Virus record (IMG/VR): IMGVR_UViG_3300026097_000008
Span: 90,977-154,976 of that record
Length of the DNA stretch: 64,000 nucleotides
Strand: one strand, 5' to 3'
Source: a virus
In this document: one piece after another, positions 3,001-31,068 of the stretch
Layout of the letters: each line of letters starts with the position of its first letter
Numbering within the stretch: the stretch's first letter is position 1
Translations under genes and position numbers: made by a program
The notes under the pieces: model-generated
Told to the model about the DNA's origin: nothing
What the model saw: only the letters and a program-made list of their open reading frames with translations
The model's database searches: none

Positions 3001-3597
3001 ACTTCCGCCATATTTTACTCTATCGTTTTTTCTATAAGCAGTACTAGAAGTCCAAGCTCCTTTATAGTCTACGCCTTCATAAAATTCTCGCCAGTCGCTA
3101 ATATTATCCTCTAATAACGATCCTGAATTGTGTGCAGTTATACATTCGTATACATAGCCGTTATATTTTACAATTGCACCAGGAGCGTAATCTATGCTAG
3201 TATTCCAATCTCCTAGATAATCGATACTTGCAGCAAACACAGTCCAATTAGAATAATCAGTGACAAAGGATGTAGAAGAATGACTAGCGGTACAAAGATA
3301 TAGATGACCGTTATAAAGCACTATATCACCTAAATTATAATTTACAGAAGTTATCCAATCACCGAGGAAAGATCTACCGCTAGTCATTACTACCCAACGA
3401 GGTTGCGGTTGCGGAGGATTAGACCCTGGTAATATAGCATTTAGATCATTACGAAATGCACTATCTGCAACGTGTGCTATCAAACAAACATAACTTTTTC
3501 CGTTAACACGAATAATGTCATCTCTTCTATAACTTGCTGCGGCTGTCCACTCACCTCGCCATCTATATTTAAATTTATCTAAACTAAATTCTGACAT
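1..3597 (-). CDS. Large virion fibre/appendage protein (partial, C-terminus beyond window) with CBM5/12-like repeats and a beta-helix-type domain
   Basis: Not in the ORF track because it has no stop in the window. ATG at 3597 (MSEFSLDKFKYRWRGEW...) reads open to position 1 (1199 codons). Contains multiple W-x4-5-Y-x2-GD-[IV]V-x-Y-x-G-x2-Y-x-C repeats, three 'YIDGVEKPxLDLxKGxTYIFDQSD'-type domains, and a 'IYVSTKGSD...PFKTIRHA...RSPYIQGVT' domain like those in the two neighbouring large proteins. Confidence 0.85.
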   Translation of the reverse strand, partial: MSEFSLDKFKYRWRGEWTAAASYRRDDIIRVNGKSYVCLIAHVADSAFRNDLNAILPGSNPPQPQPRWVVMTSGRSFLGDWITSVNYNLGDIVLYNGHLYLCTASHSSTSFVTDYSNWTVFAASIDYLGDWNTSIDYAPGAIVKYNGYVYECITAHNSGSLLEDNISDWREFYEGVDYKGAWTSSTAYRKNDRVKYGGSIFVCNTTHTSTSSFSTTNFTLEFPGYQHEKDWSSSETYQVGDVVRYGGYLYYANLTNSNQLPSTSAEQEDSETVVTTTYTVTVEDGGSGDVYLIDDTQTPNLTFVPNGIYIFNQDSATNDGYPLDLSTTQDGILGDGTAYSTGVTYFLDGVQVANRAAYVAGFDAASQRELRIAINTGTPETLYYASENQTGIAGASSITVQIPIIYWSLLSKTYNFRSSRLVQKTVTVGTDTVNGLATGVFYIDGVEKPTLDLVKGSTYIFDQSDATNSSFGGTYHPFMFSTISDGRNNDVISHYSTGVVYKLDGVAVSMNDYMNGFEAASTRTVEITVDFGAPATLYYFGHNGLNQGNSLSIYATNEWNLETEYRPGDIILRGGRLYQALTDIDESAKNLTKVITVGLDNASNQNAGAFYIDGVEKPQLDLIKGATYIFDQSDSSNNEYSLIGEDDPLYHPLKFSTSEDGDLVLGGTAYTTGVVYKLDGRELTVDQYITGFQNATVRTIEFSVPLDAPDTLYYYGHFNANQGNQLNIIVDEGTEVDTAQWELLLPGNVFSSQWQSGQRYSVGEVVSYLGTAYVCNIEHISSNLNFPGDNGNTFNFWDTLIQAGQPGGMLQIGDLLSYGLNRENVGDGSTEGSLRIPIGTANQKLSVSEELEVFWREVTNDAEVIYVSTKGSDITGNGTLYSPFKTIRHACEYIEDNIPALTPTKVSIATGRYEENCPIIIPAGCVVMGDELRSTTIIANSPKTEYDGHYTYVSAYLDYVLTFLNNLLTNQDVSGGYTGGVGQNKTLASSNLDGTNATSALITDYKNTIEARLLSGGNNPTVTGSNEANPDQDIANAGAILQANREFIYNEIIGFLEDTYPSITFYPDNIKADVYSLIRAFNRDLTFSGNYATTLAGRRFASQVLGSQIDDMFYLRDTTGLRNCTVDGLRGGLNPPGVFAQFQRPTGGAYCSLDPGWGPADERTWINNRSPYIQGVTTLGTAAIGQKIDGNLHNGGNKS

Positions 3598-4368: not shown

Positions 4369-7300
4369 CTATCCAAATATTAAAACTTTTTCAATTGCTA
4401 TATCTTCTGCATCTTGGAAGCTGATACCACCTGATGCTCCAGCAACAGAAACCCAATTAGTCCCGTCAAATAATTCAACCCTTGCATCATCAGTATTGAA
4501 ACGTATCATTCCTGTAACACCTGTTGGTCTAGTGACATTACCCCCAACTGGTAAAACTACTCCATAAGTTCCGTCTATGTTTACATAACCATCACCAGTC
4601 GTTGTGAAAGTAGTAATAGCATCTTCTACAGTATTAGTTATAGTATTGTCTTTAAATCCAAAATTCTCAAAAACAACTCTTCCAGTCCCTTGTGCAGATA
4701 ATTGCAAATCAGTGTTTGTTGTAGTAGTACTTATCACATTACCATCTACTTCAATGTCATCTACGGTTACTCTATTCGCATTAAATCTAGACGAATCTAT
4801 ATCTGCTACTGCTACTCCGTCAATATAAAATCTTATGACGTTGTCATTTGCTCCGGGAGTAAGTTCTGCCGTAATACGAGTATTTCCGTCTAAATCTTGT
4901 AATCCATTTAGCCGTATCCAATTAGTGCCGTCGTATCCTTCAAATTGTGCAGTGTCACTGTTAAATCTAATTTGTCCTGCATTTGCGCTTGGTCGATCTC
5001 CTGTACCCCCTACAGGTAATTTGAGTGCTCCTGTACTATCTATATTAACTAATCCTGTACCAGGTGATAATGTCATATCACCTGTGGTTGTAATAGTACT
5101 GTCTTTTATCGAAAAATCGTCAATAACAATAGATCCGGTTCCTGCTGCACGTAGTTCTAGATCAGAATTAGAAATTGTTGTTGTAATAAAATTATCATCT
5201 ATCAGGATATCGCCAGTCGTAAAGTTATTCGCTTGAATAGTACCAGCACTTTCTATATCATTTACAGTCAACGTACCGGTTATATTTACATTATTACCAA
5301 CGGTTATGTTTCCTGTGACTTCTAAATTTTGAGACATTTGAACATCATTACTTGGTACATTTACTACACCAGACCCGTTCGCACGTAATATTAGATCTGT
5401 ATCTGCTGTTATTGTTTCTACAACATTGTTGTCAATTAATACAGTGTTATTTGTAAAACTGTCTGCTGTTATCAAACCTGTACTAATTATATCAACTGTA
5501 GTAGTTGCTCCGTTTACTGTAAAGTCATTGTTTACTGTAAAATCGTTAGTCGGTATCAGTATTTTACCTGTGCCATTTGCTCGTAGTTCAAGATCAGTAT
5601 TTGAGGATGTAGTAGTGATAAAATTATCGTCTACTAGTATTTCTTCAAACTGTGCAGAAGCACCTACATTAATGTCCTGTTCTACTGTGACATCGCCAGA
5701 CACACTTGTGTCTCCTGTCTGGTCAAAATCTCCTACAAGTGTCACTGTACCTGTAATATTTGTATTAGCAAGAGTTGCGGTTCCATCAACATTAAGATCT
5801 TGATCTATTTGTACATCGTTACTAGGCACAACAACGTTGCCTGAGCCGTTTGCTCGTAAATCCAAATCAGCGTTTGAATCTGTTGTTGTAATGTAATTTT
5901 GTGTAATTTTTATGCCGTCAATGTCTGCTTCATTAACATATATATTACTCCAAGTTTTTGATGCACTACCAAGATTATATGTTGAAGTTAAACTAGGTAA
6001 TAAGTCACTGTCTATACCTGCAACAATTTGTATTGTATCACTAGGGTCATTACCTACAGTAATATTACCCCCAATAGTCACATTTCCTGTGACATCAAGA
6101 TCACCTGTGATATTGACATTATTATTAAGATTGATTATGTCACTACTTGCAGTAAAGTTTACGTCTCCTGACAAGCTTTCTATAGTATTACCACTTATTC
6201 TAAGATTACCAGTATCTATTCTTTCGCCGCTTACAAATGTAGTATCGCCGCCTGTGGTAAATGTTGCACCAGTAGTTAGGTCTATGTTTAGAGCACTTGC
6301 AACAAAGTTTACAGTTCCGTCATCTTGATTTACATAGAATAAATCACCTACTCTAAAATCACCTTTGTGGTCAACACTGTTATAGCGTATTTTTGCACTA
6401 TTAGATTCTACTACTTCATTTTCTTGTATAACTGTAGCTGCGTCATTTGTGACTTCTTTACCATTTCCGATATATGCTAAATTTTGTCCTATAGCATATA
6501 CAATCACGCCGTCGCCGTCGCCTACTAATCCAAAATTTCCGTAAACAGATGCAGAGCCGATCATGCGCATTTCAGCGCCGAAGTCGCGTTTGTCTATGTT
6601 GAGTATTTCTGTGGCTGTTTCTGTGCCGTCACTTATACTTTGTGGAGTAGTATCAAAACCGTCTAAATCATCGAACTTGCCTGCGATACTGATTACATCT
6701 CCATCAACTGCTGCAATAGTTCCTGTAACAACAGTTGAGCTATCAGTTGATGTAAATGTAACTGTTGCACCTTCAGTAAATGTTCCGCTAGTTCCGCCTA
6801 AACGTATATGCGTTTGTCCTGCACTTTTTAAACCTAAATTACTATTATACGCATACAAACTTCTATTTGCAAAATACGTAAAGCTGTTTAGCCATTCAAT
6901 ACGTACACCGTTTGTAGCTACAACACCATCTACACCAGGTACAATAAATGTGACACTATGGAACAGCATACTTGCTTCTTTAGAATTTGCTGTAGCATAT
7001 GAACCGTCTATGTATGCTCCTTTACCTGCGTCACCTGAATTAAATCCTCTTGGATCTTCTGCTGTAGTTGTGCTACCTGCTGTAATTACTGTAACATTTC
7101 TAATATAAGGAGAACGTGTAGTGACTTCAAAGTCTGTTGCGAAACGGAAAGCATATCCGTTGTTAGGGTATACTTTATTTCCATTACTACAGCTAAATGT
7201 TAGATTTGACACAAATACACTATGACCTACATAGCTATCGTGTGCTGCATCTAAATCTATTGTTAGCACACCAGTAGTGTTATCATAAGTTGCATTGTTT

Positions 7301-14358: not shown

Positions 14359-14844
14359 TTAGATTGCTGTAAGAATAAGCACGTTTTCAGCAGAGTCGTT
14401 ATCAACATACCAAGTATACTGGTTGTCGTCGAACCCTGTAATCTTACGTCCTGAAATTTTCTTTACAAAGACTTGAGTTCCTGAATCAGTTCCTACAAAT
14501 CCACGTAGTACCATTTCGTTATTACCAATGCCCGACGACCCGTCATCATCCACAAGTTTACATACTCCTACGCCGTTAGCTTCTGAATATACTTTGAATC
14601 TACGAGCACCTTTTTGTTGTAAAATATAGCAACTGTTTGGTCCATCATCTTGCACATCTACCGCTGCTGTGCTTGAAACTTTAGCTTTGTACACTGGAAT
14701 GTTATATCCTTTTTGACGATCTGTGCTTGCAGATGTAGTATCAAATCCGTGGATATTACGGCCGTCTCCTGTATCAGGGTATCCTGATGTGCTTGTTGTT
14801 GATCCTAGTGGACCGAAGTTCTTTTTACCTAGTGGTCTTCCCAT
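14359..14844 (-). CDS. Hypothetical late/virion protein (161 aa)
   Basis: Strong RBS AAGGAG and its own late promoter; first gene of the left-arm structural cluster. Confidence 0.7.
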   Translation of the reverse strand: MGRPLGKKNFGPLGSTTSTSGYPDTGDGRNIHGFDTTSASTDRQKGYNIPVYKAKVSSTAAVDVQDDGPNSCYILQQKGARRFKVYSEANGVGVCKLVDDDGSSGIGNNEMVLRGFVGTDSGTQVFVKKISGRKITGFDDNQYTWYVDNDSAENVLILTAI

Positions 14845-14864
14845 TTGTTTTCTCCTTTTTAAGA

Positions 14865-14934
14865 AGTCCGATGCAGGTTCTAGCTGCTACGCTGTGGGTA
14901 CAGCATAAGTCCGCCTCGCGGCACACTATCTGAC
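14865..14934 (-). promoter_or_regulatory. Cloverleaf-like late 5' leader RNA
   Basis: GUCAGAU/AUCGGAC closing stem encloses three hairpins: CCGC-GAG-GCGG, UAUGCUGU-ACCC-ACAGCGUA and GCAG-CUAGAAC-CUGC. Confidence 0.55.
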
Positions 14935-14939
14935 ATATG

Positions 14940-14945
14940 TATTTA
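14940..14945 (-). promoter_or_regulatory. gp55-type late promoter (gATAAATA)
   Basis: TAAATA just downstream of a terminator and just upstream of the structured leader. Confidence 0.65.
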
Positions 14946-14954
14946 TCAAAAGAG

Positions 14955-14987
14955 AAAAAAGCCCGACACAGTTAAGCATCGGGCTTT
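14955..14987 (-). terminator. Rho-independent terminator
   Basis: GCCCGAUGC-loop-GUGUCGGGC followed by UUUUUU on the minus strand. Confidence 0.8.
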
Positions 14988-14995
14988 ATAAAAAA

Positions 14996-15198
14996 GTGGG
15001 TGAAGGACTTGGGTTTACCTCCAACTAAGCGCCTAGATACCTTTCATCGTTAACACTTAGAACCTTGCTCTGTCTAGTATGACAGTGTGCGTACTCCTAG
15101 TCTCCTAAGTCTACGCCGGGCACTACCCCTAACAAGTGCGCTTATCCTCTCTAGAAACAGGATTATTAGCGCCAACCCTTGTAACAACGTCTTGCTAC
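14996..15198 (-). ncRNA. Candidate stand-alone structured ncRNA (~200 nt), family unknown
   Basis: No ORF; bounded by a sigma70-like promoter and a terminator; at least six consecutive hairpins with G-U pairs on the minus strand. Confidence 0.65.
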
Positions 15199-25507: not shown

Positions 25508-26806
25508 TTATCCAGGATCTCCTGAACGCATAATTTCTTTTGCTTCTTCTTTTCCGCGCTTATAAGCAGCTTGCATTTTTGGATTTGATTTAATAAAGTC
25601 TTTAATAATTGCTTTTGCTTTGTTAGGATTTATTGCATTATTCTTGTTTTCTGTATAGGTTATACTATCTCTTACAATATCTCCTGCATCGTCGGCACCG
25701 GCTATTCCCCCTAACCAGTCTAGACGTTCGCCAAACCATTGTTGAGTTCCGTCAACTGCTAGTGCAGTTCCTAAAATTCTTGCAGGGTTCATTAGAGGTC
25801 CAGACATGTTGTTTTCTAACCAATCATTAATTCCTAAAGATTCAAATAACTGATACAATGCCATAGTGCCGCCTACTACAAAGGCACCGCCTGCAACAAG
25901 TGATAATATAGCACCAACCCCGCCAGTGCCTATAGAAAATCCTGTAAGCAAGGCGAATGCTGTCCATCCTCCTGCTAGTACAATGCTTATAACAGCTTCA
26001 ACTATTAATTGATTAAATCTTTCTACAGCTTCTAAATATGCTCTACTTACGCCTGGTGTAAGATTACCGTTTTCTAAACCTGTTAAAAATGCTTGGCGTC
26101 CTGCTTTATCAACATTATTAGCATCGTTTTTTATAGCTCGTAAATAAGCATCCAGTTGATCTTCGAAAGCAGATATATTAATTGCAGAATTTAAAACTAC
26201 AGCAATTTTTGTACTAAAAAGTGCCTTAAGTGTTGAAGCTACACGTGATCCTAAAGCGTCTAATATTTTTCCTAATAAACCTTTTGGAGGATCGTCTGGA
26301 GTATCAGGAGTATCTGGTTTAGCAGTAGGCTTTACTTTATCATCTCCAGGACGTACATCTTTACCAGCAGCCGAATTGCGAATACGTTCTGCTTCTGCAT
26401 CTGCTGCTGCAATCTGTGCTCTAGTATATGATTGACCATTTACCTTAATTTTTCCGTGTCTAGACAACTTTCTTTGTTGGCTTCTACTAAGACTATCACT
26501 TGTAGGTGTGCCAGGTTTAACACCTGCTTTTAATTCACCAGGATCTTTAGGAGTATCAGTAGGTGTTGCAGGACCAACTTTAGGAGCATCGCCTTTAGGC
26601 TGATCTACGATTGGAGTTGGCGCTTTTGCACCAGGCAACATTTCCTTAGCTCGTATTTCAGCAGCATATCTGTTAGATGCAATAGATGTTTTTCCATCAG
26701 GAGCAGTAATTTTTATCTGTCCGTCATCAAGTGTATCAAAAGAAAATCCTTGAAGTGGTCCTTTTTTTACAATAGTTTTTGCTTCTGTTATTTGATATAC
26801 CTTCAT
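25508..26806 (-). CDS. Putative internal head / ejected protein with hydrophobic hairpin (432 aa)
   Basis: Own late promoter; N-terminus MKVYQITE; P/K/D-rich linker; two Gly-rich hydrophobic segments. Confidence 0.55.
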   Translation of the reverse strand: MKVYQITEAKTIVKKGPLQGFSFDTLDDGQIKITAPDGKTSIASNRYAAEIRAKEMLPGAKAPTPIVDQPKGDAPKVGPATPTDTPKDPGELKAGVKPGTPTSDSLSRSQQRKLSRHGKIKVNGQSYTRAQIAAADAEAERIRNSAAGKDVRPGDDKVKPTAKPDTPDTPDDPPKGLLGKILDALGSRVASTLKALFSTKIAVVLNSAINISAFEDQLDAYLRAIKNDANNVDKAGRQAFLTGLENGNLTPGVSRAYLEAVERFNQLIVEAVISIVLAGGWTAFALLTGFSIGTGGVGAILSLVAGGAFVVGGTMALYQLFESLGINDWLENNMSGPLMNPARILGTALAVDGTQQWFGERLDWLGGIAGADDAGDIVRDSITYTENKNNAINPNKAKAIIKDFIKSNPKMQAAYKRGKEEAKEIMRSGDPG

Positions 26807-26831
26807 AATCGTCCTTCGATATTGTTAAGTA

Positions 26832-26837
26832 TATTTA
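26832..26837 (-). promoter_or_regulatory. gp55-type late promoter (cATAAATA)
   Basis: TAAATA followed by GAAGGA RBS and ATG at 26806. Confidence 0.65.
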
Positions 26838-26841
26838 TGTC

Positions 26842-26942
26842 TCAACTTCGTTGATCCAAGTTTTCGCTATCGCTCAAACTGTTTACTTCGTAATTAATTA
26901 TGTGATATATTATTTGAAACGCATTATTACGAAGTAATAATG
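26842..26942. repeat. Cluster of short inverted repeats with GAA/TTC loops
   Basis: TCAAC-TTC-GTTGA (26842-26854), TTAC-TTC-GTAA (26883-26893), CATTATTAC-GAA-GTAATAATG (26922-26942); 12-bp inverted repeat 26883-26894 / 26926-26937. Confidence 0.85.
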
Positions 26943-26944
26943 TT

Positions 26945-27410
26945 TAAGTTTCATGTAGATTGTTTCAGTCAGACGGAACCTGTTACGGTTCCATCTAATC
27001 TCAAAAATAGCTTCATGTGAGTTCGCCACCAGCCGAGACTTGGAAGTAGGTGTTTTCTGCTACACAATGGGCTCTGACCTTTCCCAACCTACGTCGACAT
27101 CACATAATGCGCATTTATTTGCACTTTATCTGTAAAAATACAAGTTAAAGTGCAAATGATTGCACACTATGCTACCTTCCGCTTCGTTCCTGTTGCTAAG
27201 AAGTTTTTGTGTGTAATTTGCAGTTTTTCGAATGACAGCAATTCATCCTATGTCAATACGTTGGGCATATGGTTCGAACCCTCAGACTCACTTCCATTTT
27301 TCAGGATACTAGGATCTACCTAGGGGAGTGTCTCAACATGTTACGTGTGCTCCGATCAAGGATGCTTTTTCCACAGCGGTATTACAATCTGGCCCGCTAA
27401 CCTTATGTGC
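26945..27410 (-). ncRNA. Candidate large structured ncRNA (~470 nt) downstream of GIY-YIG nuclease
   Basis: Largest non-coding gap in the window; several long stems whose mismatches are G-U pairs only on the minus strand. Confidence 0.6.
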
Positions 27411-27412
27411 TG

Positions 27413-27649
27413 TTATATGCTGCCTTTTGGTAACCATGTAACAAATTTGCCGTTGCAATCGTTACATATTACTTTGCCTGCGTGTGGGCCTAAATCTAAC
27501 TTTATAACTTGCCAGTTGTGATTTTCGTGGATGCCTAACTTGATATCTTTCTTAGGTTTTTTCTTTTTCAATTGATTGCGTTCAATTGCTTCGGCATAGT
27601 GATCTATCTTATCGTATTGATTACGTTTTTGATGATTTAACTTTGCCAT
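27413..27649 (-). CDS. Small basic protein with putative Zn site (H...H...CxxC)
   Basis: 78 aa, 'LKKKKPKK', 'HENH...GPHAGKVICNDCNGKFVTW'; overlaps the end of the GIY-YIG gene by 29 bp. Confidence 0.6.
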   Translation of the reverse strand: MAKLNHQKRNQYDKIDHYAEAIERNQLKKKKPKKDIKLGIHENHNWQVIKLDLGPHAGKVICNDCNGKFVTWLPKGSI

Positions 27650-28067
27650 GTTCTAAAAGTGCCGTCCTAAGTTTTTCTGACCCGCCTACTCTAACATTAA
27701 TAATACCATTGTAGTATTCATCTGTTTCAAGTACACGCCTGTCAAATTGTTCTCTTGCCTCTATGTAGGACATTTCGCCCCTACCTTTACATAGGTATAA
27801 TATTTCTCTTGTGAAGTTTTCTGGGCCTAGTGCTGCAACGTCAGCATTGAGTCTATCAGATGATCCCCAATAGTCTTTCCAATCGCTTTCTTTTGTGCCG
27901 CGCCTTTTATTTTTCTTGCCTTTGAGTGGAGGTTTGGTAGTTTTAAATTTTGCAAGTTTTTTGCCTATATATTTTTGCCCAGTAGTTAGATTGGTTATGA
28001 GATAAACAAAACCTTCGTATTCGTCTGGTATTGTTTCTATTACTTTGCCTTGATAAGTCCACTCCAT
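27621..28067 (-). CDS. GIY-YIG family endonuclease (single domain, 148 aa)
   Basis: 'GFVYLITNLTTGQKYIGKK', 'Y.GSS', catalytic-type E in 'YIEAREQ', C-terminal 'YYN'. Confidence 0.85.
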   Translation of the reverse strand: MEWTYQGKVIETIPDEYEGFVYLITNLTTGQKYIGKKLAKFKTTKPPLKGKKNKRRGTKESDWKDYWGSSDRLNADVAALGPENFTREILYLCKGRGEMSYIEAREQFDRRVLETDEYYNGIINVRVGGSEKLRTALLEHGKVKSSKT

Positions 28068-28091: not shown

Positions 28092-28289
28092 TTATTTGCT
28101 TTCTATCTTGGTTTGATGCTTTTCGTGTATTTCTTCCATGCGGGCCTTTGCAAGTTCTCGTATTTTTCTTAACCAACGCCTTGCTTCTCTGTGTGTTCGC
28201 ACACTATTTCGAGCCTCAAACTTTTCGTTTGCCTTAAAATAGGCCATGTATGCCTTTGTTAGTTGATCGTGTGTATCGTCTTCAATCAT
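28092..28289 (-). CDS. Small basic helical protein (possibly Hc1/histone-H1-like family)
   Basis: 65 aa, 'NEKFE...EARRWLRKIRELAKARMEEI'; coupled to gp46. Family call is tentative. Confidence 0.5.
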   Translation of the reverse strand: MIEDDTHDQLTKAYMAYFKANEKFEARNSVRTHREARRWLRKIRELAKARMEEIHEKHQTKIESK

Positions 28290-30061
28290 TAATCTACAAT
28301 GTCTATGTCATTTGCATATGACGTAAAGCCATTCTCCTTCACAACTTTCATAACATGATTAACTCTTCCAACTAATTCGTCTTTGTGCGAGATTAGATAG
28401 ACATTTTTATCACGTTCGCGCCCCATTTTCTTAAGGACGCTTAGTGCATTTTCTACACCAGCGGTATCCATACCGCTATCGATAAGTTCGTCAATGAACA
28501 GTAAGTTAATGTTTTGATATAAACTTTCCCAAACATCTCTAAATGCAAAGCTCATACCTAATATAAGTCTGTTGCGCTCACCACGACTCAGATTATCAAA
28601 GTCTAGATCCTGACCTAACTGTGTAATTTCAACGTTTAGATCATTTTGGAATACAACTTGATGCGGCAGACCCAAACGATCGAGATAGTATGTAAGTCTA
28701 TTGTTTAGATATGCGAGATTTTGATCAATAATTTTCTTACGTATAAAACTATCTTTGTTTGTAAGAAGTTTAAGCAAAAATTCTTGGTGTTCCTTAAAGC
28801 TTGTAAGATCATTTACAGGCATCCAGTCAATATCTTGTAGTGCAGTTTCTGTCAGATCGTTAATTTGTTCTTGATAAGGATCTGCTTCTGTTTGCTTTGC
28901 TTCTAATGTTTGTTTTAAACTATCAACATTCTGTCTATGTTCGTAAGCTTCTTTAGCAGTTTCATAAAATGTATTAGGACGTCCGTTGATATCGCCAATT
29001 TCACCTAATCCTGCAAGAACATCTTGTAGTTTTGTACTAACTTCGGTTTGATATGCTATTGCATCGTTTAATTCTTTAGTTTTTCTAGACAAAATTTCTT
29101 CTTTTTTGTCTGCGTGAAGCTCTTGTCCGCAAGTATAACATGTAGCATCGTCAAGATTTGAGATGTCTTTTTCTGCTTTTTCAACACTTTTATCAGCACG
29201 TAATAGTGCCGAGTCCAGTGTGCTTTTTTCCTTATTAAGAGCCAAAATAGCATTGTTCATTTCTGTCCAATTAGACAGTTTTTCGTGTGCTTCTAGCTCG
29301 GCATCAATATCTAGTTTTTCTAATTGTGCAATACCCTGTGATAATTTTTCACAATCTTGCTTCTGTTTAGATTGCCAAGCACGTTGTCTACCTTCTAATG
29401 TGCTAATGCTTTCATTAATTTTTTCATTAGCTGTTTGAATTGCATTAATTTTTGCAGTTTCCTCTGTGATTGCTTCTTTGGTCACACGAACTTGTTCTTT
29501 AAGTGCTTCTGCCTTTTCTGTAAGAATCGTAATACCTAACAATTGTTCGATAATAGCACGTTGATCATTTGCTCGCATACTTAAGAACGGCTCAGTGTAG
29601 GTATTAAGTGCAACAATATGCTTAAACATATCGTGACTCATGTTTAGTAAGTCATTAATAAATTCTTGTGTTTTACGACTATCGCCTTGCGATTCATCGA
29701 TCATTTCTTGTTCTTGATCATTAATATAAAACTTAAGAACGTTAGGCGAACGTCCTCTTTCAATACGATAATCTTGTCCATCTTTCTCAAAATGCAAAGT
29801 CACTAACATTCCCTTGCTATTTGTCTTATTAATAAGATTATTACGCTTGATGTTAGTCAATGCAGTACCGTATAATGCATACGATAGTGCATTAATAATA
29901 GTTGTTTTACCAGTACCATTGCGGGATCCGCTGTCGTCTCCGCCTTGATCTAGATTTTCACCTAGCACAAGTGTTAATTGTTCTCTATTAAAGTCAACAG
30001 CTTGAGTTTGATTGCCCACGCTCATAAAATTCTTGACGGTAAGATCTTTAATTTTTATCAT
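28289..30061 (-). CDS. gp46: Recombination endonuclease ATPase subunit (gp46, SbcC/Rad50-like)
   Basis: Walker A 'NGTGKTT', coiled coil with CxxC hook 'CYTCGQ', signature 'LSRGE', Walker B 'LLFIDE', H-loop 'ISHK'. Confidence 0.95.
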   Translation of the reverse strand: MIKIKDLTVKNFMSVGNQTQAVDFNREQLTLVLGENLDQGGDDSGSRNGTGKTTIINALSYALYGTALTNIKRNNLINKTNSKGMLVTLHFEKDGQDYRIERGRSPNVLKFYINDQEQEMIDESQGDSRKTQEFINDLLNMSHDMFKHIVALNTYTEPFLSMRANDQRAIIEQLLGITILTEKAEALKEQVRVTKEAITEETAKINAIQTANEKINESISTLEGRQRAWQSKQKQDCEKLSQGIAQLEKLDIDAELEAHEKLSNWTEMNNAILALNKEKSTLDSALLRADKSVEKAEKDISNLDDATCYTCGQELHADKKEEILSRKTKELNDAIAYQTEVSTKLQDVLAGLGEIGDINGRPNTFYETAKEAYEHRQNVDSLKQTLEAKQTEADPYQEQINDLTETALQDIDWMPVNDLTSFKEHQEFLLKLLTNKDSFIRKKIIDQNLAYLNNRLTYYLDRLGLPHQVVFQNDLNVEITQLGQDLDFDNLSRGERNRLILGMSFAFRDVWESLYQNINLLFIDELIDSGMDTAGVENALSVLKKMGRERDKNVYLISHKDELVGRVNHVMKVVKENGFTSYANDIDIVD

Positions 30062-31068
30062 AGTTCGTTATAAATGTCCAAAAGTGTTTTCTTGTCGTAG
30101 TTAGTAGTGTCTAATGCAGATATTTCTCCTGCAACAATCTGATCAACACTTTCAAAGTGCTGAATGTCTAATTGTGTCGAAATTTCTTCCATTTGTTTTT
30201 GCGGAATAAGACTTATCTCTCTACAGTTGTATTGTCTAATGAATGTCTCTTTGATAAATTGTGCTTCTTCATAACTGATAGGCTTATCAATAGTGACACG
30301 TAGGTACATTTTAGGTTTTATAATACTTTCGATATTATCTAGTAAATTGCTTAATGCTATAGTTCTGTATTTAGGACAATTAGGCCAGTTAATATATTCA
30401 GGTTCCTTGCCGTTTTCGCGATCAAGGATCATCATACCACGCTCGTCGTCTCCAGCATCTGCATAGTTATGGGGAAATGCATTACCTATATAGTGTACTT
30501 TACCTTGTTTTTGCCGCTTGTGAAAGTGACCACTGAATACATATTCTTGATTTTTAAAATGTTCTACTTTTAAATCACCATGATCAGGCATTTGCACCAT
30601 AGCGTTCATGTAAAAGCTAGGAAGTTCAAAGTGACCAAACATGTATTTGGCTTTGATCTTTTCAATCTTCTTCCATTCATCGCCTACTAGCCACGGAACA
30701 AGACACACGTCGTCTTCTTGATAAATTTCATCAACAAATGTAATACCTGGAATATGTTTTGCAAATGCAGTTGAATTTACGTCACGCTTGTCTTTGTAGT
30801 ATAAATCGTGGTTGCCGTCAAAGAAGTAAAACTTTTCAAAAGCAGAACCAAGTTTTTCCATACTACGAATGGTTGCATCCATAGTCGTAAGGTTAAGACT
30901 GTTGCGATTGTGATGCCAATCGCCACAAAAGATACCAGTTTCACAACCATTGGCTTGTGCTTGTTCGATAAACCAGTCGACAAATTCTTCGCAATCGTCG
31001 TTGTGTACACGCGAGTTGCCTTTTAGACCAAAATGGATGTCTGTAAACACCGCAGCTTTTTTAAACAA
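30058..31068 (-). CDS. gp47: Recombination endonuclease nuclease subunit (gp47, SbcD/Mre11-like)
   Basis: Metallophosphoesterase motifs 'DIHFG', 'GDWHH', 'GNHD', 'GHFE', 'SGHFH'. Confidence 0.95.
   Translation of the reverse strand: MFKKAAVFTDIHFGLKGNSRVHNDDCEEFVDWFIEQAQANGCETGIFCGDWHHNRNSLNLTTMDATIRSMEKLGSAFEKFYFFDGNHDLYYKDKRDVNSTAFAKHIPGITFVDEIYQEDDVCLVPWLVGDEWKKIEKIKAKYMFGHFELPSFYMNAMVQMPDHGDLKVEHFKNQEYVFSGHFHKRQKQGKVHYIGNAFPHNYADAGDDERGMMILDRENGKEPEYINWPNCPKYRTIALSNLLDNIESIIKPKMYLRVTIDKPISYEEAQFIKETFIRQYNCREISLIPQKQMEEISTQLDIQHFESVDQIVAGEISALDTTNYDKKTLLDIYNEL

Follow-up and report, generated by a model that had tools for sequence, protein, structure and literature searches.

A large pseudoknotted RNA with two matched segments, encoded beside a GIY-YIG nuclease gene in uncultured T4-like jumbo phages

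The locus

The stretch of DNA analysed here (the window) comprises 64,000 nucleotides, positions 90,977 to 154,976 of the IMG/VR virus record IMGVR_UViG_3300026097_000008, and carries on its minus strand, just behind a small GIY-YIG nuclease gene, a gene of about 470 nt (26949-27418) for what is probably a stand-alone, highly structured non-coding RNA of an undescribed class. The source, a record of 154,976 bp (CheckV completeness 44%), belongs to a T4-like jumbo phage of aquatic origin that has not been cultured. Cultured phages share at most 48% identity with its gp46, the nearest being PA5oct, Phosso and Atu_ph07, and related contigs are as long as 236-335 kb. The minus-strand order is gp47, gp46, a 65-aa open reading frame (ORF), the GIY-YIG gene, a 78-aa ORF and the RNA (Table 1). 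RNA positions p convert to window positions as 27448 - p.

A preliminary description of this DNA, made from the letters alone, had drawn attention to about 600 bp without an ORF and to a large, ornate minus-strand RNA of about 470 nt just after the nuclease gene. The ORF-free gap measures 606 nt (26807-27412), from the 78-aa ORF to the next gene (25508-26806, 432 aa), and the longest ORF inside it encodes 57 aa on the opposite strand; the size given for the RNA was accurate. No terminator had been seen between the ORFs and the RNA, and the one site reported by our scan is the tip of hairpin j, inside the RNA. The results of the sigma-70 promoter and terminator scans were at chance level.

Secondary structure and covariation

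The extensive folding noted earlier is borne out: the minus strand folds better than shuffled sequences (z -4.9; plus strand, z -3.4), and the conserved G-U pairs fit the minus strand only, as the preliminary description had stated. A fold of 67 base pairs in 14 helices was curated from RNAalifold and an all-against-all covariation scan, and was scored on alignment A2 (119 sequences). In this alignment 97.9% of the cells are paired, compared with 87.0% for shuffled partners (none of 500 shuffles reached the observed value) and 27-44% for slid partners. Changes on both sides are found in 39 of the 67 pairs (27.3 with shuffled and 8-16 with slid partners), and the covariation score is 0.351 (0.140 and 0.03-0.07, respectively). 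The covariation test suggested in the preliminary description thus came out far above both controls.

Helix c closes a three-way junction from which hairpin d, domain e and domain k extend. Domain e contains helix f with its variable tip, hairpins g and i and the variable hairpin j, and domain k contains hairpin l. Three pseudoknot-type pairings covary, namely that of T1 with loop g, PK2, and a knot of 2 bp formed by the loop of hairpin l and the strand preceding k; PK2 has the top score in the all-against-all scan, and the T1 pairing is ACAGCA/UGCUGU in the window and CCAACA/UGUUGG in the consensus.

Most stems proposed earlier belong to this fold. The hairpin at 26969-26998 is helix m, and GUAGGU/ACCUAC enclosing UGGG/CCCA are helices k and l, all of which covary; AGCGG/CCGCU is helix b, in which one G-C to A-U change is compensated in two sequences. 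UGGAA/UUCCA, now helix c, is 93.6% paired without covariation. The long hairpin at 27103-27171 is real (helix j) but peripheral and variable, being replaced by unrelated hairpins in relatives. CUAGG/CCUAG covaries within its own module, which is only one of three alternative tips of helix f found among the relatives. The T-loop-like GGUUCGAACC is confined to one tip module, and is variable, so that it had to be given up as a general feature, and a long-range GUGAGU/ACUCAC pair was abandoned, GUGAGU being absent from the other tip modules and its changes uncompensated. An RNase P-like reading of GGGAAAGGUCAGAGCCC was ruled out, because this is a covarying hairpin with a locally pairing loop; the hairpin loop AAAGGUCAGAG is only superficially like RNase P CR-I and pairs locally. 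A tmRNA was ruled out by ARAGORN, which found neither tRNA nor tmRNA in the window, and Rfam gave no match to tmRNA or RNase P RNA either.

Table 1. Positions of the RNA gene, its structural parts and the neighbouring features in the window
Feature	Position	Strand	Remarks
gp47	30058-31068	minus	first in the minus-strand gene order
gp46	28289-30061	minus	after gp47
65-aa highly basic, helical-looking ORF	28092-28289	minus	between gp46 and the GIY-YIG gene; no family match
148-aa lone-domain SegE-type GIY-YIG nuclease gene	27621-28067	minus	Pfam PF19835 SegE_GIY-YIG, E 2.5e-35
78-aa basic ORF with His/Cys motif	27413-27649	minus	accessory insert between the GIY-YIG gene and the RNA
RNA gene	26949-27418	minus	about 470 nt; edges are those of the nucleotide homology shared with unrelated ~30-kb phages
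T1 5' strand (ACAGCA)	27408-27413	minus	pairs with the loop of hairpin g; 100% paired; 3 of 6 pairs change on both sides
Hairpin b (GCGG...CCGC)	27376-27397	minus	no variation but for 2 sequences with a compensatory A-U in place of G-C
Helix c 5' strand (UGGAA)	27369-27373	minus	pairs with 27041-27045 (UUCCA); 93.6% paired, no both-side changes
Hairpin d	27349-27365	minus	both scored pairs covary (GC/CG/UA)
Helix e 5' strand and helix f	27250-27345	minus	tip of f at 27260-27329; 5 of 9 f pairs change on both sides
Hairpin g	27230-27248	minus	loop (27235-27240) is the partner of T1; covariation in 5 of 5 stem pairs
PK2 5' strand	27210-27214	minus	pairs with 27062-27066; 5 of 5 pairs change on both sides
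Hairpin i	27176-27203	minus	near-invariant AGGAACGA loop; all 6 pairs covary
Hairpin j	27100-27175	minus	hypervariable peripheral stem; unrelated hairpins of a few to ~140 nt in relatives
Helix e 3' strand, helix k, hairpin l (AAAGGUCAGAG loop), PK2 3' strand	27046-27098	minus	helices 5 and 11-13 of the scored fold
2-bp pseudoknot	27093-27094 with 27077-27078	minus	part of the scored fold
DR1 (ACUC-ACAUGAA-G)	27011-27022	minus	first copy of the matched core
Hairpin m (GAUGGAACC...GGUUCCGUC)	26972-26995	minus	5 of 9 pairs change on both sides; G-U/A-U and U-G/C-G alternation
DR2 (AUCU-ACAUGAA-A)	26949-26960	minus	second copy of the core; 3' edge of the conserved unit
Downstream spacer	26807-26945	minus	conserved in the alignment and in L278; outside the unit common to the ~30-kb phages

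Novelty and distribution

A cmscan search with all 4,227 Rfam 15 families, including the GOLLD, ROOL, OLE, raiA and HEARO models, yielded for this RNA only sub-threshold miRNA matches on one hairpin, and divergent copies of the RNA matched no family either, so that its novelty, which the preliminary description had left to this search, stands. Neither did the region match any of 50,697 phage records by blastn, nor did literature searches return a description of such an RNA. A catalogue from 2023 (PMC10690425) presents candidates of 29-151 nt from IMG/VR, which may include fragments of the RNA. We rate the RNA as a class of large phage RNA not described before.

The RNA is present on well over 200 IMG/VR and metagenome contigs. 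The first route to its relatives was through homologues of the 78-aa ORF, which brought up the syntenic contig L002, with 78% identity in the spacer. Two short conserved blocks used as exact patterns then matched at least 120 viral contigs each, the exact-pattern scan of metagenome contigs gave at least 120 matches, and an nhmmer profile collected 133 full-length copies, of which 119 distinct sequences were kept after removal of duplicates and of copies too near contig ends. Counted with a flank of 35 nt these copies measure 391-534 nt, and their identity to the window is 49-82%; most relatives have an RNA of ~400 nt. Their conserved blocks are separated by stems variable in length and sequence, with indels that are not multiples of three. 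Sixty-one of the ~194 contigs start or stop within the RNA, at scattered positions, which we read as assembly breaks at a sequence common to co-occurring strains. In the 155-kb record, model R1 finds a single copy.

The profile does not reach all relatives. In one locus (L278) with a gp46 82% and a GIY-YIG protein 84% identical to those of the window, an ORF-free stretch of ~470 nt (5969-6439) was missed by nhmmer and scored 20 bits (E 0.008) with model R1, yet it retains the k/l hairpin motif, a compensated hairpin m and the 3' tail. The family therefore extends beyond what sequence searches reveal. The profile and model R1 found no match in the loci of Melnitz, PA5oct, Phosso, S-SSM7 and P-SSM4, and DNA similarity revealed no copy of the RNA in the whole Melnitz record.

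A 17-mer scan of genome contigs gave 38 matches, of which three are real, all on phage contigs binned into metagenome-assembled genomes (MAGs); such contigs give no host evidence. Two contigs, L319 (524-880; PBPT01000016.1, 335 kb) and L323, are jumbo-phage DNA binned in a Neomarinimicrobiota MAG, and another copy lies in a Crocinitomicaceae MAG. L319 and L323 contain a variant of the RNA with a much shorter, unrelated 5' domain, in which b, the 5' strand of c and d are unrecognisable and the 3' two-thirds, with PK2, are intact.

Two matched segments

The preliminary description had envisaged a variable segment within a conserved scaffold. Such a segment exists, and it is present twice: DR1 and DR2, matched segments of 7-10 nt, flank hairpin m at a distance of 50-67 nt from each other. 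In 115 of the 119 copies the two 7-nt cores agree exactly, and 11 core variants occur, among them ACAUGAA, ACAUAAU, ACAUGAU, GCAUGAA and ACGUGAA. Each variable core position correlates best, out of all alignment columns, with its counterpart in the other copy (normalised mutual information 0.84-1.0). When mapped on a tree of the remaining RNA sequence, the two cores underwent about 20 changes each, nearly always without a mismatched intermediate; recombination could have raised this number, yet no fewer than 10 matched double changes are needed. The L278 cores, identified by eye (ACUC-GAAUAAU-G and AUCU-GAAUAAU-A), are wholly different and again matched, and the metagenome set, which is not independent of IMG/VR, shows the same matching.

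Several explanations of the cores were rejected. Pairing of DR1 with DR2 through the CAUG palindrome, proposed by the first RNAalifold run, was ruled out because the variants change the same, not mirrored, positions in both copies. Translational bypass and small ORFs in the repeat region were ruled out, since the linker varies by non-multiples of three and some variants have no start codon; nine of the 11 core variants can be read as a sense codon followed by UGA or UAA. A U/G-rich stretch after PK2, considered as a wobble partner, is inconsistent across the variants. That leaves three readings for the matched cores: a common partner in trans, equivalent processing sites with one guide, and a requirement for identity at the DNA level.

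In one of the ~30-kb phages described below (L082), the string CACACAGAAAG, which contains that phage's own core ACAGAAA, recurs just upstream of two downstream genes (3020-3330). This recurrence may be due to chance in an A-rich leader, and the record of the window shows no equivalent enrichment.

Presence in RNA libraries

Six RNA-library runs contain parts of the stretch. The metatranscriptome coverage suggested as a check in the preliminary description was found: contigs from four runs of at least three studies, representing relatives 85-99% identical, fall on the GIY-YIG gene and the RNA. In run X17 the GIY-YIG/RNA contigs have depths of ~700-2,500, a contig of the gp46 3' end has a depth of 26, and one reaching into the downstream late genes has a depth of 404. 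A 335-nt contig (depth 1,697), from a relative without the 78-aa ORF, joins the 3' end of the GIY-YIG gene directly to the RNA. Every joint in the RNA contigs is a natural indel between relatives, and none removes the RNA. Since these contigs give no strand, ends or levels, they are counted here as presence in RNA libraries and apparent co-transcription only; flanks not covered by them carry no weight, because the flanks are too diverged for the contigs of relatives to align. Taking these results together with the fold and the distribution, we are highly confident that this large, pseudoknotted RNA exists, is widespread and occurs in RNA libraries.

Relationship between the RNA and the nuclease

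A GIY-YIG gene lies just upstream of the RNA in 147 of the 153 IMG/VR loci with enough upstream sequence and in 35 of 38 metagenome loci chosen through the 3' motif of the RNA, and all evaluable loci selected through gp46 carry both the nuclease and an RNA. Pairwise identities of the GIY-YIG protein, the RNA and gp46 are correlated (rho 0.69-0.77; GIY-YIG versus gp46, 0.71), and the mean identity is 76% for the GIY-YIG protein and 71% for gp46. The nuclease gene is thus conserved like gp46 and behaves as a vertically inherited core gene, not as a sporadic selfish one. In most loci its stop codon lies 5 nt ahead of a conserved GCGGGCCAG block, and its last codons therefore overlap T1.

The slot is open to another nuclease. 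In two loci, L026 (8216-8728) and L052 (1517-2071), a PD-(D/E)XK nuclease (PF24608, PDDEXK_15; E 1e-24 to 1e-25), whose matching PHROG is labelled RusA-like resolvase, occupies the place of the GIY-YIG gene, and the RNA next to it has the ordinary architecture. Three further T4-like loci gave no GIY-YIG match.

The RNA also occurs without either nuclease. Three loci (L082, L064 and L089) have the RNA with no gp46, gp47, baseplate hub or GIY-YIG gene nearby. The first two are records of 29,480 bp (CheckV 100%) and 30,141 bp (CheckV 98%), and in neither whole record was there a match to PF19835, PF01541, PF24608 or Gp23; as a positive control, the PF19835 search does match the window's own record. 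L082 encodes a podophage-type tail adaptor (PF23148) and a short terminase of 407 aa. For the upstream ORFs of L064 and L082 the ESM Atlas provided no usable lead. In the alignment, the L082 and L064 RNAs are 76-81% identical to those of one T4-like subgroup, and by blastn the ~30-kb phages share 80-86% identity with T4-like loci over ~385-415 nt, ending at the edges of the RNA, with no flanking protein in common. The unit is therefore that from T1 through DR2. Its presence both in phages with contigs of up to ~335 kb and in ~30-kb phages indicates that it has moved between lineages as a bare RNA gene.

Conversely, the nuclease occurs without the RNA. Coding genes directly follow the GIY-YIG homologues of Melnitz (70% identical), S-SSM7 and P-SSM4, with no such RNA; these are the three inspected among 795 phage records with a lone-domain GIY-YIG match. 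From the complete nuclease-free phages, the exchange for a PD-(D/E)XK nuclease and the RNA-less homologues it follows that the RNA is likely an autonomous module rather than an obligate nuclease subunit. The RNA-associated nuclease system suggested in the preliminary description survives as a strong link within the T4-like lineage. Judged by that description's own yardsticks, these results remove the obligate partnership, and the RNA itself stands.

Interpretation and alternatives

The explanation that we prefer, and consider probable, is that of a gene for a stand-alone RNA. The RNA would form the 3' end of the GIY-YIG transcript and begin at the upstream ORF's stop codon, and it may act alone or with factors encoded elsewhere, on a host or phage process common to the carrier phages. 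Our best guess at the mechanism is action in trans through the matched single strands: a partner would most likely be engaged via the two segments beside hairpin m, which are predicted to be single-stranded. The nuclease would be a conserved neighbour in one lineage and not a required subunit, plausibly a free-standing homing-type endonuclease that has been domesticated and sits next to a strongly conserved RNA gene. An extension of this explanation, which we regard as improbable, makes the RNA a bivalent programmable recognition device, whose two matched strands bind two copies of one complement or bridge nucleic acids. A rigid pseudoknotted scaffold would then hold the strands, whose core sequence would determine the specificity and would for that reason drift in both copies together; in the jumbo-phage lineage, the RNA might deliver or restrain the co-transcribed nuclease.

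Some of the observations weigh against a stand-alone RNA. The adjacency of ~95%, the apparent co-transcription and the correlated divergence of RNA and GIY-YIG protein (rho 0.77) make up a tight link in the T4-like lineage that could be a real functional tie there, and the start of the RNA at the stop codon of the upstream ORF in almost every locus hints at coupling. Contigs from RNA libraries cannot prove transcription, strand, ends or true levels. As to the cores, no complementary partner was found within the RNA (alignment-wide) or within 3 kb, and neither the core motif nor its complement is enriched in the 155-kb record.

The same adjacency, together with the RNA-library contig that is continuous across the GIY-YIG gene and the RNA, the lack of a DNA-binding domain in the nuclease, the nuclease of another fold in the same slot of two loci and a lineage-variable core within conserved flanks, would fit a ribonucleoprotein in which the RNA scaffolds or directs the lone GIY-YIG domain and the 7-nt cores are short specificity elements. 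The PD-(D/E)XK protein would then have an analogous effector role, and in the ~30-kb phages the nuclease would come from a gene elsewhere or from the host. We consider this unlikely, because the RNA is found in complete phage genomes that lack both a GIY-YIG and a PDDEXK_15 gene, one RNA scaffold beside two unrelated nuclease folds is hard to fit to a single protein-RNA interface, and lone-domain homologues are widespread without the RNA; moreover, 7 nt make a very short guide, and a pair of identical guides would fail to address both strands of a duplex. Nor do we favour a self-processing ribozyme or intron-derived element, in which the RNA would cleave or ligate itself, DR1 and DR2 would be equivalent substrate sites, like repeats read by a single internal guide, and the nuclease would be a remnant of a mobile intron endonuclease. 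The element resembles large ribozymes in its size, its pseudoknots and its strongly conserved, A-rich joining strands; the strand order of helix e, PK2 and hairpin l is that of P3, P7 and P8 in group I introns, with i and j at the place of P7.1/P7.2 of subgroup IA; the nuclease has a weak TIGR01453 score; and DR2 lies exactly at the 3' edge of the conserved unit. This too is improbable: no Rfam intron or ribozyme model matches, helices k and c enclose the P8- and P7-like strands as they do not in group I introns, every pair of PK2 covaries so that no invariant G-binding pair is left, and no complementary internal guide was found in the alignment. Furthermore, no gene is interrupted, different phages have different flanks, and none of the RNA contigs links the two flanks directly.

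A constraint on the DNA would explain about 20 parallel changes of the cores in which mismatched intermediates are nearly absent, since identity without constraint on sequence is a property of the crossover regions of recombination sites and of iterons; the direct repeats would then be protein-binding or crossover sites (iteron-like origin, packaging or recombination) in or beside the RNA gene. The strand-specific covariation with G-U pairs in the rest of the element makes this still less probable, as do the number of copies (two only, 50-67 nt apart), core flanks that are not inverted repeats, the transfer of the repeats with the RNA into unrelated phages sharing no flanking proteins, and the lack of the motif elsewhere in the record. 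We give the least credence of all to a cis-regulatory untranslated region controlling how stable the nuclease message is or how well it is translated, or else the expression of the late gene downstream. The RNA does begin at the stop codon of the upstream ORF and appears to be co-transcribed, and where T1 overlaps the last GIY-YIG codons, as in most loci, translation could remodel the fold; however, the RNA occurs with unrelated genes on both sides, a late-promoter-like box separates it from the next gene, and 400-470 nt with three pseudoknots far exceeds known leaders and 3' stabilisers.

Neighbouring genes and other features

The 148-aa nuclease matches PF19835 at residues 3-123 over the full length of the model, and its GIY and YIG motifs are legible in the translation. 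Only ~25 residues follow the domain, and Pfam shows no C-terminal DNA-binding domain, in agreement with the lone catalytic domain of the preliminary description. The Lys/Arg-rich segment described there as an insert is a feature of the family and not special to this protein, because PF19835 matches over the whole model. The match to TIGR01453 (group I intron endonuclease) is below the cut-off (E 7.7e-4). The 78-aa ORF, which overlaps the nuclease ORF by 29 nt and whose stop codon immediately precedes T1, has no Pfam or PHROG match; small ORFs like it lie between the GIY-YIG gene and the RNA in roughly one-fifth of the loci, and some of its relatives score weakly to PF12843. The 65-aa ORF, whose position between gp46 and the GIY-YIG gene is kept in most relatives, is a candidate for a nucleic-acid-binding partner. 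That interval is also an insertion hot spot, in which extra ORFs of ~240-250, 336 and 544-550 aa were seen (loci L006-L194).

The downstream spacer contains an AU-rich, UUCG-capped hairpin (~26923-26941), the block AGUUUGAGCG.UAGCGAAAACUU and a small C-GAA-G hairpin. The box between the RNA and the variable next gene is an ATAAATA resembling a T4 late promoter (~26831-26838). A homologue search with the 432-aa protein found no related loci, because that gene varies among relatives.

Elsewhere in the window, a manA RNA (78.6 bits) and a freshwater-2 RNA (73.1 bits) adjoin at 14842-15197 on the minus strand, both matching at the Rfam gathering score. Unannotated gaps near gp46/gp47 exist in Phosso (L286, 7410-8425, ~1,015 nt) and PA5oct (L285, 7867-8531, ~660 nt), and match neither Rfam nor the new RNA.

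Significance and comparison with known systems

To our knowledge, few large RNAs have intricate conserved folds, and those that are understood have nearly all turned out to be a ribozyme, the core of a ribonucleoprotein or a new kind of assembly. The present RNA is abundant, with at least 120 contigs in each pattern scan and high depth in environmental RNA libraries. Two segments that stay identical through about 20 parallel changes are under a constraint that matches no RNA mechanism known to us, and its explanation could reveal a new mode of RNA target recognition or processing. The locus also teaches that a nuclease and an ornate RNA side by side do not by themselves imply an RNA-guided nuclease.

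The large RNA next to a small nuclease gene recalls the HEARO/omega RNA of IscB and the reRNA of TnpB. With the latter it also shares a start at or over the nuclease ORF's 3' end and, at its own 3' edge, a segment that varies. In contrast to these OMEGA systems, the neighbour is a GIY-YIG or PD-(D/E)XK and not a RuvC/HNH nuclease, transposon ends are lacking, two complete ~30-kb phages have the RNA without such a nuclease, and the variable core is just 7-10 nt, is duplicated inside the RNA (DR1 and DR2) and has no target that we could find. The td/I-TevI group I introns of T4 likewise place a GIY-YIG ORF beside a pseudoknotted RNA of ~400 nt in a T4-like phage, with a partly similar strand topology; here, however, the flanking genes are complete, extra helices enclose the core and there is no G-binding pair. 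The group I intron model RF00028 gave no match in the window or the divergent copies, either at the gathering score or at E up to 10, and no splice junction crosses the element in the RNA contigs, which can miss rare forms. In type III toxin-antitoxin systems of the ToxIN kind, an endoribonuclease toxin processes antitoxin RNA repeats arranged in tandem; here the RNA is single, non-repetitive and 400-470 nt long, and its neighbour belongs to a DNA-nuclease family.

The seg genes of T4 provide another parallel, in particular segB, a free-standing seg-type endonuclease gene in the cluster of tRNA and stable-RNA genes. In both cases a GIY-YIG gene occupies an intergenic slot beside a conserved RNA gene, a slot open to different nuclease folds; unlike the sporadic Seg genes, the nuclease of the window has no DNA-binding domain, is nearly fixed (~95% of loci) and is vertically inherited.

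The RNA is also like GOLLD and ROOL, large ornate RNAs often found in phages and prophages, which are Rfam families and for which cryo-EM structures are available (PMC12286853). Like them, the new RNA is hundreds of nucleotides long, multi-domain, pseudoknotted, covarying and phage-borne, and is not tied to one protein gene. It differs from them in matching neither their sequences nor their models, in being carried by uncultured marine and freshwater jumbo T4-like phages and ~30-kb phages, in being usually fused to the 3' end of a nuclease message, and in its two matched variable segments.

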